DNA from: Octopus vulgaris
Lineage: Eukaryota
DNA: 64,000 bases
NCBI GenBank assembly: GCA_951406725.2
Contig: OX597817.1
Location: forward strand, 134,478,001 to 134,542,000
Direction of reading: 5' to 3'
In this document: positions 21,032 to 56,914 of the stretch, in pieces
Layout: every line of letters begins with the position of its first letter
Numbering within the stretch: the first letter of the stretch is position 1
Program-made: the position numbers and the translations under genes
The notes under the pieces: model-generated
Seen by the model: only the letters and a program-made list of their open reading frames with translations
The model's database searches: none
Told to the model about the DNA's origin: nothing

Positions 21032-21142
<111 letters not shown>

Positions 21143-21257
21143 CATCTGCATGTAAGAGTACAGGACGTCACCAACAGTGCAAATAACATGAAATACCTAA
21201 ACAACGAGAAAAACATATCTTCTCTAGAATAATTATTGCTTAAACATTTTCCCACAC

Positions 21258-21306
21258 TGTCTCCGATGAAGGGATATATAAAATATCTCGGAAACAGCTA
21301 TAAAAC
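21258..21306 (+). ncRNA. Decayed type I hammerhead ribozyme
   Basis: TGTCT-CCGATGA-A GGGATAT ataaa ATATCTC G-GAAA-C AGCT A-TA-AAAC. Core U4 and stem III G are mutated. Same layout as 46034-46089. Confidence 0.5.
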
Positions 21307-21413
21307 CTATATATAAATGTTGTGAAACTTTCACACCCTTGGATTGTTTTTATCTCATTCTGTTATTTTTTTAATAAAGTATGAATATATATTTATGTAT
21401 ATACATGTATGTG

Positions 21414-21662: not shown

Positions 21663-23120
21663 TTATTCATACGGTATTTTATCAGTTGACATTTTAAACC
21701 TCGTGGCATGCCTGCAAGTATTTAAGGGCTTACGTCTCTCGTTCACAGCATGTTTATCCTGGAACAGGTTGAGGAACTTTTCTGAGAAGCAAATATTACA
21801 TTTTATGGGTCTTTTATAAGCTCCATGTCTGTATGCTTTTTCTAGAATTTCCCTGGTTACATCGAATGGACGGGTGTCATACTCTTTCACTTCCCAAACA
21901 TGCTTTGCAAGACTTATTGCTGTCCTATTCTCAGGGTACCGGAAATAATTTCAGTGAGAATAGACTCGAGTCTTGAATGAATTTTCCGAAGTTCCTGTGT
22001 ATGATTTATATACTTGTGACCCATCTACTTGCAATTTAGTTCTATAAGCTATTCCTTTTTCAAGATATTTACCTTCCAACGGGCAGCAAGTCTTATCTCT
22101 GAATTTGCAGTTCCTCTTATTAGATTCGGCACTGTAGTTGTTTGTAATAATTTTCGTCTTATGCAGACTGATAAAAGAGGCGAAGCTTTTGCAACAAGAA
22201 TAGCTAACCTTCATTGATCTCCTATTAAAAATTCTATAGAACTTATGGCTAGATTGAAAATGCTTAAAAACTAATTTTAAGAATTCCCCTAACTATATTC
22301 GTTTTTACGGCAATATTGAATGCGGGGTTAAACCACAACATTTTCCTAGTTCTAGTTTTATGTGGTCTATTATTGTTAGAATTAGTTTGACTCTACTGGA
22401 TCTTTTCCTAGAATCCACTTTTCCTTGATGCACTATTATAACACGGCGAGCCATTTTGAAATGCTGTCAAATCCGAACTTATTGAGGATACGCGCCTTCC
22501 TATATTACTAACTAGGTTCTTAAGAATTACGGATGGATGATTAGCTGCTTTGCTGATATAACATAATTTTCATTTGGCTTATGGTAGGGTTTAAATTTAT
22601 CTAATTGCAAATCTAAGTAGAGATCTAAAACAATTTTACGTTATTAAGGTTACTTTCTATCATAATCCGTAAGACCATTCTTTGGAAGAAAGTAATCAGA
22701 TTCTTCCTAAGTTTATCTAAGTCATGGCTGTTTAAATTATGGGTGACTACAAGACCCTCATCCCAGTATAAGCCTTCATCTATAAAAGGGAATTCTAGAT
22801 GTAGATTATGCAAAATATAAGTTCCTATAAGCATACACAATTCCGCTCCATTATATGCCCCCCATCGGTACATCGAAAAGAGAATCTTCACTCTTTTTGA
22901 CCCAAGTGGAATTATCACGAAAAGGAAGGGATTTCCTTACATGCAGGATAATAAATATTCCGAGCTATTGGTGGTGACATACTGCTTGGCGAAATCTCAT
23001 GCTTTTAGAAGCAAAAGCCTAGAGATTAACGGGTAAAAATCAACAATATCAAACTGTGTAAATTTGCAATTATGCCTCTGGCTACTTCTTTTGAACTAAT
23101 CTATCACTGACTTGCCATTT
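21663..23120 (-). mobile_element. Decayed Penelope-like element (RT and GIY-YIG endonuclease)
   Basis: Across frameshifts and stops: FTQFDIVDFYP, GAYNGAELCMLIG, GLYWDEGL, KVSYSCC, CPLEGKYL..GIAY...YTGTSENSFKTR...H, KCNICFSEK, LNTCRH. Confidence 0.9.
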
Positions 23121-23185
23121 TTTCAAATCCGTAAATATATACATCATAACGTATATACGCAAACATTTTTAAAAACTGTATGGTA

Positions 23186-23329
23186 TTCTTTTACTTGTTT
23201 CAGTCATTTTGACTGCGGCCATGCTGGAGCACCGCCTTTAGCCGAGCAAATCGACCCCGCGACTTATTCTTTGTAAGCCCAGTACTTATTCTATCGGTCT
23301 CTTTTTGCCGAACCGCTAAGTGACGGGGA
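23186..23329 (-). mobile_element. SINE family A, 3' fragment
   Basis: Near-identical to the reverse complement of 372-505. Confidence 0.8.
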
Positions 23330-23860
23330 AATATATATATTAAAATGTTAGAATAAAGAAATTGCACAATAGATATATATAACATAATTATTTTGGACCA
23401 CCAAGCCTCCAGAAACTGCTCTTGGACTCATAAAACTCTAACTCAACCCCTTAGTTGCTGATATCATTACCATTCTGCGTAAATCGGTCTTTTTTATATG
23501 TAAACCTATGTACATTTTTTGTATAAAATATCGATAATATTTTTTTGTTTATCGACTTGCCCCACTTGCTTGTCCTTACACTATTTAACTTCTTTAAAAT
23601 ACGATCTAAAAAATATTTGCTAATAATACCTATTTCAGTTTTAGCCGGGTTAATTAGTCTACATTTAGGGTTTCTATTGAAATTAGCATCGTAGTATTTA
23701 AGGGTGATAAAGGGTTAGTGTGTGGTAGGGTATTCTATCCTATAATTAGCTTTAAGATTGTTAACAATTCTTTGTCTCCAAATTCACCTTTTTATAGAAA
23801 ATTGTGTTATGCTTTTTGTAGGTGTCAGTGAGGCTAAAAGTTGGCAGTCATTTCAGGATA

Positions 23861-31312: not shown

Positions 31313-31863
31313 TATTCTTGATAAACATATTAATTATAATGTCAACGTGCACCAGTCCAAACGACGAATGGCAATGAAAGAATCGGTAAAACAATTAGCT
31401 ACGTGAAAACACCATTACCATCTGCGTTTTGTGGTGACCGATGAGGAGACAACTACTCCGAAATGTTAACATCTCACAGTCTCGGTAGATGGCGCTGCGA
31501 GCTGGCATAGATGTATACACACCATTTGTCAACAAGCGGAATATATTCTCCGTGATAAAACGCAGCGAGTAGCTTGTTACCCAGGTCGAAGCTGTATCGA
31601 GCATATTCGAACTGATAATAACATTGCAGTTTCGCTTACCACTACTCAGCGCTCCCCGCTCCGTAACTTCGCTTGTGGCAACATGAAATTGACTGAATAG
31701 TCCATTGTTGCCTGTTGCTTCTTCATGTCTTTTTTTTTTGTACTCCTTGTCTTGTTTTTCCCTTTTCGCTGCTTTCACTACGCCCTCATACCTAACTGTC
31801 ACTGGCAAGGTTTCCTTATCTTGGGATAGGTATCACATTAAGATCCCAAATTCGATACGTAGA

Positions 31864-41468: not shown

Positions 41469-43036
<1,568 letters not shown>

Positions 43037-43657: not shown

Positions 43658-44786
43658 AATGATGATGATGATGATGATGATGATGATAAGGAGGAGGAAG
43701 AGGAGGAGGAGTTTGCATCTGTCAAATTTAATCAATTTTTATTCCTTTTGCAATCTATTTTGATGTATTTAATGTCAAACTGTTTTCAGACAACGGAAGA
43801 CATTTTGAAGAAGGTTGAGGAGAAGTTTATATTCAGATTTAACGCTCCACACATAGATATGTCTGTGTGAAAGAGTGTCTGTATGTGTGTAAGTGTGTGT
43901 ATGTGTGTGTGGAAGATTGTGTTAATATATACTTCGTTATTTTATTATATTTTGTTTATAATTTACAATTAATTCCGAAACTTTATCTGTTGATCATAAA
44001 GATACAAAAATATCTCGTTTTACGACAACCGCTTTTCCATCATAAATAATGATTGTCACCAGCCCCTCTCACATTCTCCTACATCTCTCTCTCTCTCTCT
44101 CTCTCTTCTCTATCCCTCTCTCTCCTCTCTCCCTCCTCTCTCCCTCCTCTCTCTCTCACTCTTCTCTCTCTTTCTCTCTTACTCTATTGGTTTTAGTTTA
44201 TAATAATGATTATAAACAGTAATTTTCCAGGTGATTATTCAACGCTATATCTCAGTTTTCTCCAGAAACAAATATCGGCTGGCAGAGGACCGTGAAGCTG
44301 CCATTTTGACCACATATATTATGGCACAACTCAAGTGTGTCACTTTACTATTACTTTTTTCTATTATCATATCAAGTAAACTGAGAGAAGATAATGTTTC
44401 TGATAAAATACACCGCTTTAAAATTTTCTTTGCTCTTCATTTCATTCAAGCTGAACATATTTCTCTTACTGCTACCAATATATAGCTATAATTGGTTTTC
44501 TGCCCTTGCTTTATAGCGACACGTGTGGAACAGTTGCATGCTTGCCTTGGTAGATGGATGAATGATTCTGTACAATACATATATCAATTCTTGTAGCTGC
44601 ACCATTTTTCAGCCCAGTTACAAAATGTGGTACAATGCAGCTCATCCCTTCAATGTCCGTATTTATATATCTGAGACATTTAGAAATTCAATATTTCTAA
44701 TTTCGGTGATCAGTAAATAAATATTACTGATAATATGATATATTTGCAGAGAGGTTGCGGTCATCTGAGCGAGCGGGGCAGGCTAC

Positions 44787-44832
44787 CCTGAACTGACGAT
44801 GAGCGATACACTCAGAAACATATGTCCTCAGG
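44787..44832 (+). ncRNA. Type I hammerhead ribozyme with intact core
   Basis: CCTGAA-CTGACGA-TGAG cgataca CTCA-GAAA-C ATAT G-TC-CTCAGG. GUC site, predicted cut after 44826. One A-C mismatch at the base of stem I. Confidence 0.8.
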
Positions 44833-44995
44833 TGCTTAGTCCCAGCTTGCGGGGGTGATTGCCTCCGCTTTGCAAATATAAGGACACTGAAAATGTGTTA
44901 AAGCCGATAGGAGACGTCGATGTTTCCTAGGGCTAAATGGCGGTGGTGTAATTCCCTTACGGGACTGTCACATTGAGTTGACAGTATATGACCAC

Positions 44996-45027
<32 letters not shown>

Positions 45028-45172
45028 CACTCGGAGTTTTATCATGGGTACCGAATAATTGTCACATTATATTAACAGATAAATTCCTCTACTTACATAA
45101 TATCGAGGTCTCTTTCATTGTTTTGTTGTCTTACCATTTCTATCAATACATATATATATATATATATATAAA

Positions 45173-45381
45173 GCTTAGTAAAATAAATACTTTGCCGCAT
45201 ACTGAACTCATTAGAAATAGCAGCTAAAAACTTTTTTAAAGCTATTTCTAATACTTAAAGAAAATCTCTCTCATACACTATATGAGAGAGATTTTCTTTA
45301 AGCATTAGAAATAGCTTTAAAAAGTTTTTAGCTGCTATTTCTAATGAGTTCAGTATGCGGCAAATAATTTATTTACTAAGC
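45173..45381. repeat. Near-perfect palindrome with ~100-bp arms and a 5-nt spacer (fold-back element)
   Basis: 45173-45275 is the reverse complement of 45281-45381 with few differences. Spacer CACTA. Confidence 0.95.
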
Positions 45382-45487
45382 CCTTTTATATAATGTAATA
45401 ATTTGAATTCGCCTTAAATGGTCCCTTTGCATACTGAACACTTGGTGAAATTGATTAATAATTAATTAATTTTACCCTCAATTGTTG

Positions 45488-45533
<46 letters not shown>

Positions 45534-45810
45534 TATTTATATTATATATGTGTGTATATTATTTATATTATATATATACACACATATATATACATATATA
45601 TATATATGATGAACTAGGCTATAAACTGACCCCATAAAAACAAAAAAAAAAATCAGTGACAGGCAGAGTCTGTAACAATGTATATCTTCTTGAAATGCTT
45701 GGAGTAAGAACACCGCGTTCTTTGTCTATCTCTTTAACTTCTTGGGGATTCTAGGTATAAGTATACTAATATGTCTATCTGTTCTAATTTAATTAAATTC
45801 TATGTCCTTG

Positions 45811-45905
45811 TGCAGCTGAAGATTGCTCTGCATTTTAAATTGATGTTATGAGTGCATTATTCAATTATTCAATTAAATGGAGTTGCATGAAACGATCGTA
45901 CTGCA
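45811..45905 (+). ncRNA. Type I hammerhead ribozyme with a long stem II insertion
   Basis: TGCAG-CTGAAGA-TTGC...GCAT-GAAA-C GATC G-TA-CTGCA. Perfect 5-bp stem I. GUA site, predicted cut after 45900. Confidence 0.75.
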
Positions 45906-46033
45906 TTACCTCTGAATATGCTTGTTGCTTATATATATATATATATATATATATGTTAAACAGGACGTCAAACGTTAAGGCAAGGCAAACATCTCAAGTC
46001 ATATACAATATTATTATGGGAAAAAATTTAAAA

Positions 46034-46089
46034 ATCTTACAATTGTTTTTGGAATATCCTCGAGCATGGAATATTCCATCGTCAGAGAC
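46034..46089 (-). ncRNA. Type I hammerhead ribozyme with GAAA mutated to AAAA (likely inactive)
   Basis: Minus strand: GTCT-CTGACGA-TGGAATATT ccatgctcgag GATATTCCA-AAAA-C AATT G-TA-AGAT. 9-bp stem II. Confidence 0.7.
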
Positions 46090-47571
46090 AAATTGGGGGG
46101 GGTATGGTAAACGAGAATGGTATATATCAATAAAATGACAGCATAGAGGAAGGGAGTAAAATAATATAGAAATAAAAAGAGAGAGGCGAAAAAGAGGCTT
46201 ATAAGTTCATAGTTCAATTTCCGAAGTTATAGAAACCAGGGCATGAGCCCTTAGGTATAATCCTGCGTAGATCCATGGGTGTAAGTCTTTAGGTGCAATC
46301 CTGTATAGATCCATGTCGGTTAAAGTCCTTATTTAGCAGACATCCCAAGAAAAAAACGCCAACATATCAGTGTTCAATAACAAAATGGTAGCAGAGGTGG
46401 CTGTTAATTGGTAAAAGTAGAGAAAAGAAAAGAAATAGAAAGAGGGGTAGATAGCGTGAGGTAGGGGGATTTTAAGGATTGGCTATAGGATAAAGTAAAG
46501 TGCATATGTGTAAGGTGTCTAGGAATTGTGTATGGGGTAGTCGAGAAGATAAGAGAGAAGATAAGGTGGTAAAGGAAGATACGGTAAAAAAAGAGCGAAA
46601 TGAAAGGAATTTAAAGAGAGTACTAGATATCTGGTAGTTTCAAAGTCTAAAGTTGTTGGGGAGAAAATTTGGTAGTAATTACTTGTGTCCATCCTGGCTA
46701 AGGTCAGTGGCTGGACAGTTATTTTTAGCAATGGGGCTGTGTGAGCGTAGGTATTCGAGAAAGGAAGAGCTGATTGAATATGAAATTATTTATGAGTAGG
46801 AGTTAGAATTAGGGATTTGTATTAGGGATTTTGGGGGTTAAGGTTTAAAATAAATTAAGGATGAATTAAAGAATTAATATTTATCTCAAGCATGGTGAGG
46901 TACGGCAGATAGATATGAGGTAAGACATAAAATACAAATAAGAGTTATAGAGATATAGAAGTATACGTTAATGATCATAGGGGTATTATGTGGGTGATAT
47001 TAGTGGCGGGGTGAGCTTACATTTAGATTTATGAAAGAATTTAAAAGTGCGGAAGAATTTGTGCTTACAAGTATTGAAGGCCTCGTTGTATTTATAAAAA
47101 GGCCAAGAAATATATCTTTAAACCACGTTTTGATAAATCCAATAACGGAAGATATAGAATCTGGCTGTTAAATGGTAAGTGACATTGAAAACCTCTAGAG
47201 CATTAATAGTCTCTGTTCCCCCTACCCCTCTAACTTCAACCTACTAGCTTTTTGCTATAATACACTCAAATGTATCTAAACTGAATGAGGATGGGTTTAT
47301 GGTTTTCACATTTGTACTACCCCTTCCTATATCTATAAATAGAAAAAATTCTTGTTTGTCTCCATTCAACCAAGAATAAAACCCCCTCCTCACTGACAGA
47401 TCTAAACAATAAAGGGAACTTAATGATAAAAATCTACTAGAGTGAACATACTACTAGCATGTTCTTAAGAATGAAATCAACCTCTCTCTATATATCTACC
47501 CTCTTTATAATGTTGGCAAATGAAACAGGGATAAGAATGTGCATTGTCCGTTTAATTGGAAAATTCTATAA

Positions 47572-47657
47572 ATGGCTGAAGATTGCTCGACATTTTAAAA
47601 CTGATGTAATACTTACAGTGTTTAATAAAATGAAGTAGCATGAAACAATTTTACTAT
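47572..47657 (+). ncRNA. Type I hammerhead ribozyme, paralogue of 45811-45905, with stem III G mutated
   Basis: ATGG-CTGAAGA-TTGCT...AGCAT-GAAA-C AATT T-TA-CTAT. Shares GCTGAAGATTGCTC, CATTTTAAA, TGATGT and GCATGAAAC with the 45811 copy. Confidence 0.65.
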
Positions 47658-47994
47658 TCTGCCTAGCATGACCATACGTGTTCTGTCTCTGCCTTCGAAA
47701 CACGTGTCTGCGAGCGACAGATGATGAAGGGGATTTTTCCTTGTGCAGCATGTCCTGTACTTCGTTTTTCTGCTGCACATAATTGTTTTTCCCGTTTTCG
47801 TTTTCATTTCGTCTTGTTCCACGTCTCTGTCCTTCTGTTGTAAAAAAATGGCTTTTTCGTTTTCGTTCTGTTGATTTTTACGTCTTCTTGTGATGTCCTG
47901 TACGTATATATATATTTATATATGCATGTATATATACATGTAGATGTCGGTACGTACAGATATGTTTGTATGTATGCATATATTTTATTTATTA

Positions 47995-48034
<40 letters not shown>

Positions 48035-48036
<2 letters not shown>

Positions 48037-48200
48037 GACGGGTTTCTTTCAGTTTCCGTCTATGAAATCCACTCACAAAGCATTGGTCGACCCGAATCTA
48101 TAGTAGAAGACACTTGCTCTCAAGTTCCAGCGCGATGAGTCTGAAGTCAGAGCCATGAGGTTTGGAGCCAAGCTTCTTACCAAACACCCACGTCTGCACC
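48035..48200 (-). mobile_element. SINE family A, 5' half
   Basis: CGACGGGTTTCTTTCAGTTTCCGTCTA...CTATAGTAGAAGACACTTGC. Confidence 0.75.
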
Positions 48201-48314
48201 TTTATTATAAATAGCTATTCTTAAACGCCACCCGATAACCACAGTTATTTCATGTATTATATGTAGAAATCTCCCCCCGCCCTATTGTCTCTTTTTTAAC
48301 TCTTTTCCATAATG

Positions 48315-48374
<60 letters not shown>

Positions 48375-48376
<2 letters not shown>

Positions 48377-48712
48377 GGTAAAGACCCCCTTCGGTCATGA
48401 ATGACCATGGGATTGCACCTAGAAAGTTACCCTCCTAGACACAAGTCCGGGCAAGGTTGTTTATGGAAGACCAGCAGTCGCCCATGCATACCGGCCTCCC
48501 CTCTCCACGCCACCAGTGTTATCCAAGGGAAAGACAAAGGTCGATACAGCTTGGAACCAGTGACGTCGCAACTCATTTCTACAGCTGAGTGAACTGGAGC
48601 AACGTGAAATAAAGTGTTTTGCTCAAGAATACAACACGCAGCCCGGTCCGGGATTCGAGCTCACAACCTCACGATCGTAAGCTCGACGCTCTAACCACTG
48701 AGCCATGCGCCT
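48375..48712 (-). mobile_element. tRNA-derived SINE, family C, inserted in (TA)n
   Basis: Head GGCGCATGGCTCAGTGGTTAGAGCG...GAGCTCGAATCCCGG with clear A and B boxes. (TA)n on both sides. Head-only relatives at about 37283-37385 and 40625-40712. Confidence 0.85.
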
Positions 48713-48860
48713 TATATATATATATATGCTAGCTGATGATGATTGTAGACTGTCCGAAACCTTATATATTGATAAAAGAAACGTGTTCAGAATACGAATA
48801 ACAGTGGGAAAAAGTAATTTCTCAAATGACTAATAACATGAGTATTATCTTTCTAATGGA

Positions 48861-49240
48861 AGCACTCCGTCGGTTACGACGACGAGGATTCCGGTTGATC
48901 CGAATCAACGGAACAGCCTTCTCGTAAAATTAACGTGTAAGTGGCTGAGCACTCCACAGACACGTGTACCCTTAACGTAGTTCTCGGGGATATTCAGCGT
49001 GACACAGAGAGTGACAAGGCCGGCCCTTTGAAATACAGGTACAACAGAAACAGGAAGTAAGAGTGAGAAAAAGTTGTGGTGAAAGAGTACAGCAGGGATC
49101 ACCACCAACCCCTGCCGGAGCCTCGTGGAGCTTTAGGTGTTTTCGCTCAATAAACACTCACAACGCCCGGTCTGGGAGTCGAAACCGCGATCCTATGACC
49201 GCGAGTCCGCTGCCCTAACCACTGGGCCATTGCGCCTCCA
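48861..49240 (-). mobile_element. tRNA-derived SINE, family D
   Basis: Head GGCGCAATGGCCCAGTGGTTAGGGCAGCGG...GGTTTCGACTCCC. The tail is shared with 36531-36700. Confidence 0.85.
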
Positions 49241-49631
49241 CTATATTTCTAATATTGTCACAAACACACATTTTATTTTAGATTATACCACCGCCAGTAT
49301 TTGACTGGAATTTGTCCTCTCGTATTCGTAATGTTAAAAATTAAAGTCGTTCTCAGAACGATTTGAAATCAGAAATAAAAGGACTGCAACTACATATTGT
49401 TATGCGCCTGTGTAAGAGGATCTGTCAAGCTAATAACGCAGTATTTGATGTTCAAACAAGTCATCCATGTTAAGTTGGATGTAAAGATTACCTTTTGGTA
49501 GAAACACTGCTGCTTTCTGTCGCTAATAATTAATTTTTTAATAGGCCTGCTGGTTGTTTGCGGCATCAGTATTTGAAGTGATGCCAAATTTCTATATATA
49601 GTAGCAGCGCGATTTAACTGAAATGCGATGA

Positions 49632-49692
49632 CCGGATGTTTCCCACTGACGATTTTCCTATAGAATGAAATCACGTGATGTGGGAATTCCGG
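49632..49692 (+). ncRNA. Type I hammerhead-like fold with G at the cleavage position
   Basis: CCGGA tgt TTCCCA-CTGACGA-ttttcctatagaat-GAAA-TC ACGT GA-TG-TGGGAA t TCCGG. 6+5-bp stem I, palindromic stem III, weak stem II. Confidence 0.6.
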
Positions 49693-50513
49693 CGCCCATG
49701 ACAGACGATGTGTGTGCGTTTATGCAACAAGCGCCTACATCAGAGGATCTCTCAAGGTTAATAACGCTGTATCCAGCATTCTAACAAGATATCCATGAAA
49801 AGTTTTATTATTACCTATTATTATGCATTTTGTCTGATATTCTACCGATTCTGCCAATCCACATCTGCCAAACTCACACGAAGGAAACTAAACAATTTAG
49901 TTATATATTTCACATTCACTTATCTCCTTCAGAAGCGACCAGTGAACTTCTTGTTATCAAACAGCCTCTCAGGCAATTGTCTCAATATAACAATGGGTTC
50001 CGTTTCATCTAACTGCATCTCAACAAATATTCACTTATACCCACCCTTTTAACTCCTTCAGTTTCTTCTCTTCCTAAAATCTCTCACTAAACCCCATATA
50101 AAATTCTCATTCATGAAAACAATATACGTTTATCTTATCTCCATAATATTGCCAAATATTAACATCCAATGTTTCTTATCCATTAACTTCACTTATGCAC
50201 CACCGTAGCCTAAAGGCAAAAACCATTTCCTCATCGCCATCACCACCAACTTCCTCAAAATAAAAGCAAGAAGGAGGTTAGTGAAGCAGAGAATGTCTAT
50301 TTATGACGATTCTAAACTTACCATAAAACCGAACAGAACCCAATATTTGTATATGAGTGTTTATTTGAGCTTTTATTATTACGGACTGGCAGAGCACTTC
50401 TTACCTGTACCAGATGCTTTCATCGCCTGTTTAATACATATGTGTGGAAAATACGTTCAATGATGCTTAACTTCGGTGCTTTCTAAAAGAGAAAACCATA
50501 AAAAGTACCAAGA

Positions 50514-50697
50514 TTTATTAGAATATTGATTTCTAATATTGACACAAGGCCACCACTTTTCGGGTAGGGAACAATCGATTAAATCAACTACCTAGCCCTC
50601 CCACCACCACCACTTCTACCTCCATTACTTGTTGTGATTAGTAGAATATTAATGACTTTGTTCGTTGTTTTTCTTGTTGCAGAGAATGAGCTCTGAT
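50514..50697 (+). repeat. Source copy of an exact 184-bp direct duplication
   Basis: Identical by eye to 53557-53740. Confidence 0.9.
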
Positions 50698-51988: not shown

Positions 51989-54388
51989 TATGTTTGACTT
52001 TTGCTTTATATTTGTACAAGTTGGCTCCAAGTCTCACCAAGAGACCTCAAGAGACAACATGTTGTTGTTATGCCTAGTGTGCCATATATTTGGGGGTTTT
52101 TTGTGTTGTACTAGTGAATGCCTAAAAAAGCATCCGAAATTTATGTTTGTTTTAAAACTTGAGATTACATAGAAAGTATTTTGCGTAGGATATGAGCAGT
52201 TCCCATGAGCACTATCTTTTGAATTTCTGCCATTTTGGGGTTTCCTGGTATCTGAGTTAGGTAGCAATCAGCCACTTTTGCTATCATTCCCAGGGCACCT
52301 ATGACAACAGGTATTGTCTTAGTCTTCAGGTTCCACATTTTGCTGATTTCTATTTCAAGATCTTTATATTTGCTCAGTTTTCAGTAAGTCTTGACAGATA
52401 CGTTTATATCGATTGGGACAGTCATATCAATGAAGAGGCATGTTCTTTGTGTGAAGTCTTTCAATATGATGTCAGGCCTATTTGCATCTATCTTTCTGTC
52501 AGTTTGAATGGTGAAGTTCCAGAGGAGTGAGATGTGGTCATTTTCAGGCACTGGAGGTGGTTTGTGTTCCCACCAGTTTTTTCATGGGGCAAATCCAGGC
52601 TTTTGCAAATTACCCAGTGAATATATAGTGCAGCTCTATCATGCCTGTTGAGATACTCTGTAGGCGCGAGAAGACTGCACTTGGAGACAACATGATCAAT
52701 GGTTTCATTTTGTTGTTGACATACACGAAATATTGGGCAACTGCCGTTCTTTAATATGTTGGCCTGGTAGATTCTTGTTGGTAGGCATGGACCTTGCAAT
52801 GATAAATCCTTCTGTTTCAGATTTTAAGCCTGAGGCCATTAGCCACTGATGGGTCATGGCTTTGTCAACATCTGCATTATTCACTCTCTTTGGGTATTTG
52901 CCATAGAGAGCTTTTTCTAGCCATTTATCATTCAGAATATCTAAGGCCGCAGTTTTAGCACGGGCTTTCATGCGCTTAGCGTTTTCTGTGCTTGTTTCTT
53001 GTATGTCTAATTCCGAAATTTGTTGTATTTGAAATTCGCTTAGATATTCCTTTGCCTGTTTTGATACTGAGTATGATGCTTTCTTGTTGTCGTGGTTTGA
53101 GACAAGTTTTAACATCCAGTCCTCAGAGGCTTTCAGGTTGGTGGCTAGGCCAATTGTAGCAATCTTCATTGTTATTGCCAGTTGTAAAAGTCCACGGCCT
53201 CCCTCTTTTCTTGGCAGATAAAGTCGTTCTGTATCTGCCTTAGGCTGGTGCATTCAATGCATTGTCAACGGTTTTCGTATTTTTCTGTGAAGATTACATA
53301 TTTCAGTAATTGACCAGTTAACGATGCTGAAAATGTAAGTCACGACTGGTATGGCTAAAGCATTGATCGCTTCGATCCTGTTTCTCGCATTCAGCTTTGT
53401 CTTGAGTATTACTCTTACTCTGCAATAACATTCTCTCCTGATCCTTTCCTTCATCACTGAATGCCTTATTCCTTCCCCGTCAATTGCCCCTAGGTACTTG
53501 TAGCCCTCCGCTAGGTCTAATTCTTTTATGACATTCTGCTGGTCAAGGTTAGATGTTTTATTAGAATATTGATTTCTAATATTGACACAAGGCCACCACT
53601 TTTCGGGTAGGGAACAATCGATTAAATCAACTACCTAGCCCTCCCACCACCACCACTTCTACCTCCATTACTTGTTGTGATTAGTAGAATATTAATGACT
53701 TTGTTCGTTGTTTTTCTTGTTGCAGAGAATGAGCTCTGATAAAGGTAGCTTTTGCACATTTATCGAAGCCAAATTGCATTCAGATGTCATCACTGAATTG
53801 TTTGACAATCGCTAGTAAGCCCTTGAGTTGTTGGTCATTTTTTGCGAAGAGCTTTAAATCATCCATGTAAATGAGATGATTTATATTTTTATCAAACATT
53901 TTATATCCGTAGTGCGCGTCATTGAGCAGTTTTGAGAGAGGTATTAAGGCTAAACAAAAGAGGAGTGGTGATAGTGAGTCACCCTGGAAAATGCTACTTA
54001 AATTTTTACATCACCAGCATTTAGAGATTCATTGTCACTGTTCAAAGTTAGTGTGGTTCTCCATGATCTCATACTTACAGACAATACGTTTCGCAGTGTA
54101 GGTGCTATTTTATACATTTCCAGGTATTTCTTAATCCAGATATGTGGTAGGCTATCAAAAGCCTTTTTATAGTCTATCCAGTCTATTGCTGCTGTCTGTT
54201 AAAAAACTATAGGTATATTCCGTCAAGACAGATGTTAGCGATTTATACACAGTTGTTAAGCAGGTGATGGGTCTATAGTTTTTTGGTTCATTTGTTTTTC
54301 ACTTTTTGGAAGCAGGAATGTTAAACCATTAACTAGCCAAGGAGGCATCCTACTAGGGCGTTGCAAAACATCATTGAAAAAGTTTTAC

Positions 54389-54891: not shown

Positions 54892-55468
54892 ATATATATA
54901 TGTATGTATATATATATATATATATATATACACATTTATGAGTTTGTGTTTATGTATATATATATCTGTATTCATACTCAAATATACACATATATGAATA
55001 CGTTTGTTTGTAAAAATATAGTTTATTGATTCAAATATTGTACTCAACATTTCTGTGAATATAGTATCTTATATTCTTTATTAGGTTAAAATATTCCAGA
55101 GTTAATCCCATTTCATAGCTGCAAAAGATATGCATCTTCAAACAGGAAATCTACTCTAGTTTCTGGTGTAAATAAGTTCAGGAGTTTTTTAAAATTCAAC
55201 GTAGTTTTAGAATGTGAAGAAAAATTGATTTTATTTTCATTGTTCAGCCTGAAACCTATTACTATATTACTTCTGTCTGTCAAGACAAAATGCAATGGCC
55301 TTTCACTTAAAAACAGTCACTGAGAGATACACCCATCCGATCCTCAGCACTCGAAATCAATAAACAGGGGAACAATTACATGGTACATACGCTTATTCAC
55401 ACATAGACAGGAACACGGAGACATCTCTACAAATATTTAAATAGAGTTGAACGCAGGTGTTATTCAAA

Positions 55469-55570
55469 TTCTCTTACTTTCGACATATGTTTCGAAGACA
55501 ACATTGGTTTTATTCCAAAGGAATAAACGGTGTAAAATGATGTAATCTTCTCATCAGGAAAGAAAGAGAA
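55469..55570 (-). ncRNA. Type I hammerhead ribozyme downstream of a Penelope-like ORF, intact core
   Basis: Minus strand: TTCTCTTTCTTTC-CTGATGA-GAAGAT...GTCTTC-GAAA-C ATAT G-TC-GAAAGTAAGAGAA. Stem I has 12 of 13 pairs. GUC site, predicted cut between 55482 and 55481. Confidence 0.88.
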
Positions 55571-55788
55571 CCTATCTCAACAAGACATAGCAAGTTTGAT
55601 GACTGCATAAATGATAAACAGAACGCTCTTAAGAATTTTTTAAAAAACCGTTAGTAGATCCGACGTCAAATGCAGACCCTAGGAAGAGAAGGGGTAAAGA
55701 AATAATAAGTAAAGCACAAATAAAGAGGGATATATTGAAATAAAGTGCAAGGTGAACTAAATGTTCAAACTATATAGACTGGTAAAAA

Positions 55789-56560
55789 TCACTTATATGA
55801 GCTAAAGGTATGTTTCTGCCAGTAGTTACATTTGTAAGATCGCTCTATATGTGTGTTAACAAGGTGATTCTTAGAGAAGAGAATATGGGAGAGTTCAGAG
55901 TCGCAACTGTTACAAAATCCTTTGTCCTTGTCATAAGGGAAAGAGATGGACAGTATGAACCTATCTAACTTAAAATCCTTATTGTTGTCTTTAAGATACC
56001 AAAACAATTTACTTAGTCCTCTGCTATAACGTTTACTACTATTCCTAAATGAAGAATAATGATTGGAAATTCTCTTAAATAACTGGGAAGAGGACGCGCC
56101 AATATAGAAATGACAGCGGTACCGCAAGAAATTTTACATTGGGATATACAATTCTTAATCTTAGAATTATTAGACTTAATTTTTATTCTGTTGGGGTTGA
56201 CCTCAGAGACCAAAACTATGTTGTTATTATCATTATCATAATTATTATTATTATTATTAGTAGTAGTAGTAGTAGTAGTAGTAGTATGATGATGATGACG
56301 ATGTGAAGGGCTGGTATTAACAAAATTAATGTTGGAACCCTCAGAAAATGAACCTTTATTTAGCAGACGGTATTATGATGAGATATAATTTGTTAAAGAT
56401 TCTTTGTGTTGGAGAAAGGAACTCTAACTATATGAGAATAAATAATTGACAAATATCTAGAATTTTTTGGAAAGTTCTTATCAACCACTTCACGGAACTG
56501 CAGAGGAAGATTAGATTTAATTTGCCTTCCATACGGAATAACAAAGCAAACTGTTTTCAA
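55789..56560 (-). mobile_element. Penelope-like element, linker and GIY-YIG fragment
   Basis: IPYGRQIKSNLPLQFREVVDKNFPKNSRY, FYIGASSSQLFKRISNHYSSF, LSKLFWYLKD, CNSCDSEL, KCNY. A low-complexity trinucleotide tract lies at 56220-56302. Confidence 0.8.
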
Positions 56561-56582
56561 ACAAAGGATAATTCATTTATCC

Positions 56583-56839: not shown

Positions 56840-56914
56840 TGAGTCAATCATGAGACTCGAACTCACATCCCTGTGATTACGCGTCAAGTGCTTTAACGTT
56901 AAGCTAAACTGCCC
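56840..56914 (-). pseudogene. tRNA-like sequence (Thr-CGT-like pseudogene or isolated SINE head)
   Basis: GGGCAGTTTAGCTTAACGTTAAAGCACTTGACGCGTAATCACAGGGATGTGAGTTCGAGTCTCATGATTGACTCA. The T arm is good; the acceptor and anticodon stems are imperfect. Confidence 0.55.

Follow-up and report, generated by a model that had tools for sequence, protein, structure and literature searches.

Introduction

Minimal type I hammerhead ribozymes are known from Penelope-like elements (PLEs) (Cervera and de la Pena 2014, PMC4209133). Type I hammerheads also occur, one per unit, in non-LTR retrozymes, whose units are mostly a few hundred nucleotides long; a dependence on PLEs has been proposed for them (PMC7229834; Li et al. 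2026, 10.64898/2026.07.22.740005). The hammerhead of one PLE required protein for cleavage, insertion of that element in vitro did not depend on cleavage, and RNA ends were looked for at the site and not found (PMC11167929). The Naiads, another group of PLEs, were described as lacking a canonical hammerhead and having only 'core' or 'half core' strings, with their spread not hindered (Craig et al. 2021, PMC8557442).

Reordered hammerheads have been described as type SGC, from metatranscriptomes, and type CSG, from metagenomes. Both cleave in vitro, and neither was found in the genome of a known organism (Eckert et al. 2023, PMC10085705). The same authors assume that the CUGAnGA box is inseparable from the adjacent strand of stem II. 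In a further system, a pseudoknot helix can replace helix II (Zhan et al. 2024, PMC11300833). Here we describe a retroelement family of Octopus vulgaris in which the CUGANGA box and its stem II strand are separated. One copy lies at 47661 in a 64,000-nt stretch of contig OX597817.1 (the window; coordinates count from its first base).

Results

The element at 47661

The copy in the window is inserted a few bases past the hammerhead of a neighboring element, family C, and terminates in (TA)n. Its parts are as follows.

47661..48000, forward strand: 5′-truncated copy of a non-coding element carrying the candidate rearranged hammerhead (youngest subfamily), 94% identical over 344 nt to a full 898-nt unit
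47662..47672, forward strand: segment U, 5′ strand of the connecting helix U:X
47676..47687, forward strand: block S, with the stem III 5′ strand at 47676-47681 (U16.1 = 47681), H17 at 47682 and a stem I strand at 47683-47687
47692..47706, forward strand: block G, with the stem II strand 11.x at 47692-47696, GAAA at 47697-47700 and the stem III 3′ strand to 47706
47706..47727, forward strand: segment X (47706-47714) and block C, with the stem I strand 2.x at 47716-47720 and CUGANGA at 47721-47727
47729..47742, forward strand: G-rich hairpin 3′ of the CUGANGA box, kept across subfamilies, without covariation

Along the RNA of full copies the order is the upstream stem II strand, U, S, a 3-5-nt linker, G (11.x, GAAA, stem III strand), X, a stem I strand and CUGANGA. 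The RNA of this family is predicted to fold into a rearranged hammerhead core in which A9 is not followed by its stem II strand. In the window copy the predicted cut falls after 47682. This copy is itself broken: all but the last base (47661) of the upstream stem II strand is cut off, and C3 has changed to A in the CUGANGA box, which is intact in other copies of the family. Because of the C3 change, the copy is predicted to be inactive.

The family is non-coding, with units of 760-990 nt and at least 2,836 copies; for the youngest subfamily, 1,102 candidates at about 95% were counted. Its head-to-tail units show 5′ truncation and inversion and lie in microsatellite targets, and partial tandems occur with periods of 898 and 904. 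Exact matches to the S-G-C pattern number 1,514 in the genome and 0 in the control, with a further 301 (control, 1) for a second type of stem III, and GAAA precedes CUGANGA in 2,836 matches (control, 1). Contigs from four sequencing runs, carrying four organism labels, contain pieces of the element, with no ends shown. Viral contigs gave three matches to a short pattern, none of them with an S block by eye.

A type II reading of the motif at 47692, with a stem I hairpin between GUC and CUGAUGA, was rejected, as there is no stem I and the GUC is lost in divergent subfamilies. The commonest other match to the type II pattern is a repeat without stems.

A PLE protein match lies near 5 of 167 loci of the family, at unrelated positions. 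Against the few PLE families fetched, the element showed no sequence homology to an autonomous element. A Neptune-like family beside one copy was tried as a partner and proved to be a separate 5-kb element with only one weak 50-nt antisense match.

Comparison with described hammerheads

The element shares with types SGC and CSG the same core, block S before block G, a short linker between stems I and II, and an extra helix, here U:X, that joins the other sides of these stems. It differs from both in being present as thousands of copies in an animal genome, in retroelements. The order S, G, C, the linker of 3-5 nt (about 3 in type SGC) and the joining helix are all those of type SGC, whereas CUGANGA is split from its stem II strand: block C is interrupted, with no covariation directly after the box and the covarying partner upstream. 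The order of type CSG is absent within one copy of the window's clade, where C comes last. The layout is type CSG opened between A9 and position 10.1. As in the pseudoknot hammerhead of Zhan et al., helix II would come from a distant strand and stack on the sheared A9-G12 pair, but here CUGANGA is last and the 11.x partner lies upstream of the cleavage site. This A9-uncoupled layout matches none of the published permutations that we found; Lunse et al. 2017, as represented in passages of a review, may describe related variants.

The clade also differs from minimal type I hammerheads. Its stem III has 5-7 bp in cis, mostly without a palindrome, so it should need no dimer for this stem. With non-LTR retrozymes (Cervera and de la Pena 2020) it shares non-coding head-to-tail units; its units are longer, at 760-990 nt, and carry a permuted ribozyme in place of a type I hammerhead. 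With Naiads it has in common insertion at (TA)n, truncation at the 5′ end, 5′ copies in inverted orientation and partial tandems, and several published Naiad 3′ ends show, by eye, the same split hammerhead. Unlike Naiads it is non-coding, and the open reading frame that defines them, with an N-terminal GIY-YIG and a C-terminal reverse transcriptase, is absent.

Covariation of the four helices

Across an alignment of 45 copies picked by hand, pairing in the four helices is 90.3%, as against 37-47% in slid controls. Cells with a double change number 135, compared with 50.7 in shuffles (0/500 shuffles), a count that kinship among copies inflates. Pairs that change on both sides make up 4/6 in stem I, 1/5 in stem III (via a G.U state), 9/10 in U:X and 1/5 in the upstream stem II. 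Invariant stem III pairs in the A3 copies are forced, because those copies were chosen by core patterns. A tree built from the 3′ flank, short and poorly resolved, requires at least two to four changes at each of five covarying pairs. Covariation backs all three helices that flank the core, namely stems I and III and the upstream-supplied stem II, the last through one covarying pair in the window's clade.

Single-sequence folding recovered the long hairpin. In 4/6 copies it also placed the 2.x strand and CUGANGA inside a second hairpin; the program scores no pseudoknots. The youngest subfamily has very short linkers in the long hairpin, which makes folding in cis harder.

Core conservation and 5′ ends

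Among 69 copies chosen without using the core, none of the 11 core positions (C3 U4 G5 A6 G8 A9, G12 A13 A14 A15.1, U16.1) varies between five subfamily majorities, compared with 98 of 216 other positions (p 0.003). At N7 both U and A occur, and at H17 U, C and A. The core is intact in 53 of the 69 copies, and 16 have lost a core base. The 5′ ends were sampled from 60 copies chosen by the 3′ flank alone. With bins fixed after a first pass over the data, ends fall at -2..+14 of the predicted cut in 16/53 (six of these within 2 nt), at -19..-3 in 2/37 (p 0.0035) and at +15..+48 in 7/60. This pile-up of truncated-copy ends just 3′ of the predicted cut suggests cleavage in vivo.

It is conceivable, though unlikely, that the four-helix structure is real and no longer catalytic, serving as a protein-binding or template signal, with arrest or jumping of the reverse transcriptase making the pile-up of ends. 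The ends are spread over 15 nt and favor joints at TA microhomology, competing hairpins are predicted, and mutating the hammerhead of one PLE left its insertion unimpaired in vitro (PMC11167929). Three observations speak against this. The step in 5′ ends coincides with the predicted scissile bond, within the loop, rather than with the hairpin's 3′ foot. The 11 core bases are invariant from one subfamily to the next, and N7 and H17 vary in the manner of a hammerhead. An identical core and geometry also recur in unrelated families, described below.

The partner of stem II

To judge from covariation, the strand before GAAA pairs with the upstream segment and not with the bases after CUGANGA. Neither the classical stem II nor the hairpin after A9 shows covariation. 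A helix between X and a segment lying 3′ of the G run was looked at by eye and set aside. Where one subfamily has changed C to G at 11.4, 17 of the 19 copies that retain the upstream partner have C there.

An ordinary type SGC ribozyme, whose stem II would be the weak, G-rich pairing that directly follows CUGANGA, with an inhibitory switch in the upstream helix, seems quite improbable on these data. Such pairing can be drawn in 93% of cells of the window's clade, and a G can oppose C11.1 after an insertion of 1-3 nt. However, the pairing shows no double change, is two-thirds G.U, and breaks at 11.4 in the subfamily where the upstream strand compensates.

A second family in the genome, with unrelated stems, has the same split layout (543 matches; 2 in the control). 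The S block is paired in 8 of its 25 loci. In seven of these eight the upstream pairing reaches at least 5 bp, and in none does pairing after CUGANGA reach 3 bp, which also argues against the type SGC reading.

The published 3′ ends of Naiads, parsed by eye, hold the split layout in 5/17 (two octopus, one squid, one box jellyfish, one coral) and type CSG in 3/17, with unrelated stem sequences; the other 9/17 did not parse (2 ambiguous, 7 with no core in view). Pairing after CUGANGA was not seen by eye in the split-type ends, again in conflict with an ordinary type SGC. No sequence similarity was found between the 47661 element and the Naiad-type ribozyme family.

The type I hammerheads of the window

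The cluster at 44787-49692 is a pile-up of the truncated ends of six retroelement families, most of them broken. The eight hammerhead sites proposed in the sequence-only reading all lie at or next to the positions it gave, except that the motif at 47692, taken there for a partial type I core, is the complete reordered one described above. The other seven are of type I.

21214..21373, forward strand: family F fragment, type I hammerhead 21259-21306
44670..45004, forward strand: family A, a non-coding unit of about 350 nt repeated head to tail, with the minimal type I hammerhead 44787-44832
45642..45932, forward strand: family C2 3′ end, type I hammerhead 45810-45906 with a long stem II
45959..47092, reverse strand: 1.1-kb 3′ region of family D, a likely Penelope-like element, with the type I hammerhead 46088-46035
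47152..47664, forward strand: 3′ part of family C, with the type I hammerhead 47572-47657; the element at 47661 interrupts it
49404..49804, forward strand: family E, an old tandem unit of about 340 nt (70-78% identity), non-coding, with the type I hammerhead 49640-49686
55438..56561, reverse strand: family B, 3′ end of a Penelope-like element, endonuclease-like frame 56219-55792, type I hammerhead 55562-55477

These motifs are of the kind reported in PLEs (PMC4209133), with type I order, a short palindromic stem III, many families and mostly solitary truncated copies. At the level of the family, A, B, C, C2, D, E and F all show the layout: CUGANGA and stem II, then GAAA, a short palindromic stem III, NUH and stem I. 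The fully intact motifs of the window are just 45810 and 55562(-), and 45810-45906 is the only type I motif of the cluster with an intact core and a paired first stem I base. In family A the core at 44787 is intact, with a mismatch at 1.1-2.1, the first stem I pair. Among the window's other copies, G12 has become A in that of family D, the 15.2-16.2 pair is lost in that of family C, and that of family E has G at position 17, where other copies have A. The family F motif combines a U4-to-C change with a broken 15.2-16.2 pair. The 5′ ends of family A show no clear step; 3/30 of its copies have an intact core, and one subfamily is divergent.

Each motif belongs to a different multi-copy repeat family (722 to 2,975 first-look candidates per family), and families B and D have a Penelope-type coding end just upstream of the hammerhead, in agreement with the retroelement landscape that had been proposed. 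With protein queries taken from families B and D themselves, same-strand PLE-type matches were found at 9/9 loci of B, 8/9 of D, 1/9 of C, 1/7 of C2, 1/7 of F, 0/11 of A and 0/7 of E. The endonuclease-like frame of family B is broken. Pfam, NCBIfam and BLASTP gave no name for the frames of families B and D; the Atlas leads for family B were PF26215 and GIY-YIG.

The motif density exceeds that of shuffled sequence. A strict type I descriptor gave three matches in the window, whereas 60 dinucleotide shuffles made block by block gave a mean of 0.12 and a maximum of 1. When one core mismatch was permitted, a descriptor tuned on the window's own motifs gave five within 5.2 kb (44600-49800) and none in any of 60 shuffles; it gave three in 200 kb of arbitrary genome stretches and one in the 40 kb adjoining the window. 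Rfam, to which the sequence-only reading had looked for confirmation, listed no hammerhead among 117 matches with E ≤ 1 across the window. Repeat finder output on the window was dominated by microsatellites.

The stem III tetramers are those first listed, with one exception: ACGT at 47702 forms no loop and belongs to one strand of a longer stem III. Palindromic stem III loops are enriched, at 22/35 type I matches in 1.37 Mb of loci collected independently of the type I families, and by eye at 69 of the first 100 genome type I patterns listed, in 12 different palindromes. The changes of palindrome observed are changes between families.

Taken by itself, the type I cluster is ordinary. That it is a selected module of dimer-type minimal hammerheads cutting host transcripts across the region, as its density far above background and two intact cores might indicate, is very hard to credit, since it consists of six separate insertions on both strands, four of them broken and one directly inside another, with palindromes that differ and cannot pair with each other. 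Exact type I patterns number 17,309 in the genome and 1,542 in the control, an excess of more than 15,000, and a review reports that PLEs insert into existing copies or beside them (PMC6765202).

Discussion

The reading that we favor, and consider likely, is that the cluster holds the truncated ends of six families, and that the RNA of one of them, the 47661 family, is predicted to fold into a rearranged hammerhead that probably cuts itself and sets the 5′ ends of some templates. From the observed sequence order, copy numbers, covariation and 5′-end distribution we infer a fold, its cleavage and a mobilizer. U:X and stem III are predicted to form one long hairpin. Its loop would pair with the two tails at its base, as the covariation suggests, creating stems I and II. 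A9 is not followed by the strand opposite C11.1 because the loop pairs with these two basal tails. Folding within one copy is preferred, with pairing between tandem copies as an alternative.

A Penelope-type protein, likely of Naiad type, would then insert copies of the element RNA at (TA)n targets. Genomic copies ending at the cut would stem from cleaved linear RNA, and longer copies and partial tandems from RNA that was uncleaved or circular.

The same arrangement may extend well beyond this family. We lean, with less assurance, toward a general model in which Naiad-type PLEs and their non-coding partners in cnidarians, nematodes, spiders and cephalopods use non-circularly permuted hammerheads, including the A9-uncoupled topology, as their 3′ ribozyme. 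These would cleave as monomers in vivo, and the cleavage would be recorded in the 5′ ends of the copies.

If the 47661 RNA cleaves, it would represent a hammerhead topology outside the six-permutation scheme of PMC10085705. Within the literature searched, no non-circularly permuted hammerhead from the genome of a named animal would precede it. It would further revise the view of Naiads as PLEs without a canonical hammerhead whose spread was unhindered (PMC8557442). Naiads may instead carry a permuted hammerhead overlooked by standard descriptors and Rfam. Finally, RNA ends of a PLE hammerhead were sought earlier and not found (PMC11167929), and the step in 5′ ends would be a genomic read-out of putative cleavage in vivo. 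The role of PLE hammerheads would therefore become directly testable.

Results

The sequence-only reading had called the motif at 47692 a partial hammerhead core. It lies in a 5′-truncated copy, at 47661, of a non-coding element, and "partial" does not hold for the family, whose copies carry a complete core in the order cleavage site (S), GAAA (G), CUGANGA (C). The motif leads instead to a new hammerhead variant. In family copies GAAAC comes first and an intact CUGAUGA follows 20-26 nt downstream. Upstream of GAAAC lies a GUH; its flanks form stem III with the bases 3′ of GAAA and stem I with those 5′ of CUGAUGA. The S-G-C pattern has 1,514 exact matches versus 0 in the control, a variant with another type of stem III gives 301 versus 1, and GAAA preceding CUGANGA alone has 2,836 versus 1. 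The motif is carried by a non-coding unit 760-990 nt long, with partial tandems, 5′ inversions and (TA)n ends; only 5 of 167 loci of this element have a Penelope-like element (PLE) protein nearby. The copy at 47661 lacks the upstream strand described below and has a C3 to A change, and is therefore predicted to be dead; an intact copy is found, for example, at G000:C1:17433033-17433083 (-). The 3′-end remnant of another copy occupies 21052-21174 (-). A different high-copy repeat (loci L074-L100) matches GAAAC..CTGAGGA without any stems and was rejected as a false positive of type II patterns.

Stem II of this variant is split. The G run after CUGAUGA pairs weakly, and without covariation, with the strand before GAAA. 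The partner of that strand is instead a GAAGG some 25 nt 5′ of the predicted cut, and where position 11.4 has changed to G, the upstream partner is C in 17 of the 19 copies keeping that base. Single-sequence folding favoured two hairpins, one burying CUGANGA, in four of six copies; the ribozyme may thus require a switch or assistance from a protein. In loci L103-L132, some 30 nt 5′ of the predicted cut, bases resembling a 3′ splice site (a pyrimidine tract and YAG) precede the upstream stem II strand; several subfamilies have this AG and others lack it.

Covariation was scored in 45 copies hand-picked to span subfamilies. The four helices are 90.3% paired, versus 37-47% in slid controls. Double-change cells number 135 versus 50.7 in shuffles, a count reached by 0 of 500 shuffles and inflated by kinship among copies. 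At least four versions of stem I occur (CTGTC/GACAG, CTGCC/GGCAG, TCGCC/GGCGR, TTGTC/GACAA), one stem III pair runs from A-U through G.U to G-C across copies, and RNAalifold recovers the connecting helix (U:X) and stem III unaided. On a weakly resolved 3′-flank tree (115 rows, after eight of 123 on long branches were dropped), 2-4 changes are needed at each of five covarying pairs. Among five subfamily majorities, drawn from 69 copies selected without use of the core, 0 of 11 core positions differ, compared with 98 of 216 other positions; the whole core is retained in 53 of the 69. From these sequence comparisons, a new hammerhead variant conserved as a structure is well supported, and its role as a catalyst is predicted. 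Two pairs of loci (L373/L378 and L370/L383) each share one GAAA-box change, and may mark core-defective lineages that are still spreading.

The 5′ ends of copies gather near the predicted cut. In 60 copies selected solely by sequence 3′ of the core, and with bins fixed after a first pass, 16 of 53 copies at risk end at -2 to +14 of the site (1.78% per nt; six within 2 nt), versus 2 of 37 at -19 to -3 (0.32% per nt; Fisher p 0.0035); 7 of 60 end at +15 to +48 (0.34% per nt). A single copy, marked as having an internal deletion, was scored as passing. By eye, the same 15 nt hold the 5′ ends of 29 of the first 100 G-plus-C matches listed, a sample sharing a few copies with the 60. We infer that this distribution may be a fossil record of the predicted cut. 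Arrest of reverse transcription is a rival explanation for the step. The 5′ ends favour TA microhomology, and the same test on type I family A, which has few intact cores, gave no clear step.

A split layout with unrelated stems also appears at the 3′ ends of some Naiad elements. PMC8557442, in the part available, describes Naiads as lacking a canonical hammerhead and lists "core" and "half core" strings. The 480-600 characters in front of each of 17 headers in its consensus file were inspected by eye, and every end was attributed to the table entry before it; most were picked for a "core" label. Within these extracts, the split layout is present in 5 of 17 (Naiad_Ovul, Naiad_Obim, Naiad-2_Movir, Naiad_Amil and Naiad_Esco, the last with one stem II mismatch). 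Type CSG is present in three (Naiad_Hpol, Naiad_Smim, Naiad-3_Nbra), with a linker of 3-4 nt and a connecting helix of 9-12 bp; seven show no core in view and two parsed ambiguously. The ends assigned to the oyster entries Naiad_CGi and Naiad_Sglo (File S5, as extracted) have in common a conserved, GC-rich segment of roughly 90 nt that lacks a hammerhead core and is a candidate structured RNA of another type.

Matches to the Ovul-type motif number 543 in the octopus genome versus 2 in the control. In 25 loci of this second family the S block is paired in 8, the other 17 being decayed or truncated; of the 8, 7 pair at least 5 bp upstream and 0 pair 3 bp after CUGANGA. Both copies of one tandem pair start exactly at the predicted cut. 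Since no DNA similarity was found between the ribozymes of this family and those of the 47661 clade, mobilisation of the window's element by a Naiad-type protein is something we infer.

The hammerhead motifs reported by the sequence-only reading are present, and they form a genuine cluster of a kind already known. The window spans G000:C4:134478001-134542000 in a genome of 2.8 Gb that is rich in microsatellites. A strict type I descriptor gives 3 matches in the window versus 0.12 in shuffles. A one-mismatch descriptor, tuned on the cluster's own motifs in a window itself chosen for the cluster, gives 5 in 44600-49800, against none across 60 shuffles, 3 over 200 kb taken from arbitrary parts of the genome and 1 over 40 kb next to the window; this excess is why we accept the cluster. 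The core or stem III is broken in four of its six motifs and a fifth is mismatched at the first stem I pair. An Rfam scan of the whole window detected none of the hammerhead motifs. Nested insertion is the best reading of the pile-up; the element at 47661 begins a few bases past the family C hammerhead. Two further core-like strings, at 48733 (+), without a paired cleavage site, and at 31438 (+), passing the one-mismatch descriptor only, are probably decayed or chance.

Each type I motif belongs to a separate repeat family; a first look gave between 722 and 2,975 candidates per family. Families A and E are head-to-tail non-coding units of about 350 nt, and A has 5′ inversions and (TA)n ends. 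A PLE-type coding end lies upstream at 9 of 9 family B and 8 of 9 family D loci, by protein queries drawn from B and D themselves; Pfam gave these ends no name, and Atlas leads were PF26215 and GIY-YIG. C (1 of 9 loci), C2 (1 of 7) and F (1 of 7) have one PLE protein match each. Exact type I patterns number 17,309 genome-wide versus 1,542 in the control, and 22 of 35 type I matches in stored loci fetched for other families have a palindromic loop. The window's motifs are of the same kind as the minimal hammerheads of PMC4209133, which in the part available describes PLE type I hammerheads as many families, their copies mostly solitary, truncated and weakly active even as dimers. In many type I families genome-wide the 10.1-11.1 pair is non-Watson-Crick (U.U, A.G, A.A, C.A) and not G-C, as at 45816, 47576, 49646 and 21260 in the window.

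Other elements in the window are as follows.

21684-23859, -: Penelope-type RT and endonuclease-like reading frames, broken, antisense to the 21259 hammerhead
41698-42913, +, and 52100-53322, -: LINE-like RT fragments, 94-95% alike, inverted, flanking the cluster
45165-45392: near-perfect inverted repeat of 228 nt, MITE-like
50514-50697 and 53557-53740: two copies of a 184-nt stretch, 100% identical
56842-56913, -: tRNA-like match (31.2 versus an Rfam gathering score of 29 bits), possibly a SINE head

Elsewhere, a young two-frame PLE family of 5 kb (loci L237-L241, e.g. G000:C1:37062500-37067736; copies about 98% alike) has a 775-aa frame with RVT_1 and GIY-YIG, and a 280-nt pLTR. Its 3′ end showed no CUGANGA with a nearby GAAA in 30 loci, and it may use another ribozyme or none.

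Discussion

The layout of the 47661 clade is type CSG in which the first block has been shifted to last place. It has each of the four helices that the available part of PMC10085705 describes for the SGC and CSG ribozymes, but its chain is opened between A9 and 10.1, at the A9/stem II junction that the same source assumed to be uninterruptible. That part also states that no known organism's genome yielded SGC or CSG, and the words octopus, mollusc, metazoa and retrozyme had no match in its supplement, as available. According to the accessible part of PMC11300833, a pseudoknot helix can replace helix II; helix II is replaced in that hammerhead, but its connectivity differs from that of the 47661 clade. 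Our literature searches, which excluded subscription journals and bioRxiv supplements, turned up no animal retroelement described as having a permuted or split hammerhead.

A mechanism consistent with the block order, copy numbers, covariation and 5′-end distribution of the permuted element would begin with a hairpin folded back so that its loop pairs with the two tails at its base. The bond 3′ of H17 would then be cut through the G12/G8 chemistry usual for hammerheads (PMC11300833, in part). A PLE protein would then copy the RNA from an internal start, as demonstrated for one PLE in the available part of PMC11167929. Cleaved RNA would yield copies ending at the cut, and uncleaved or circular RNA would yield the partial tandems.
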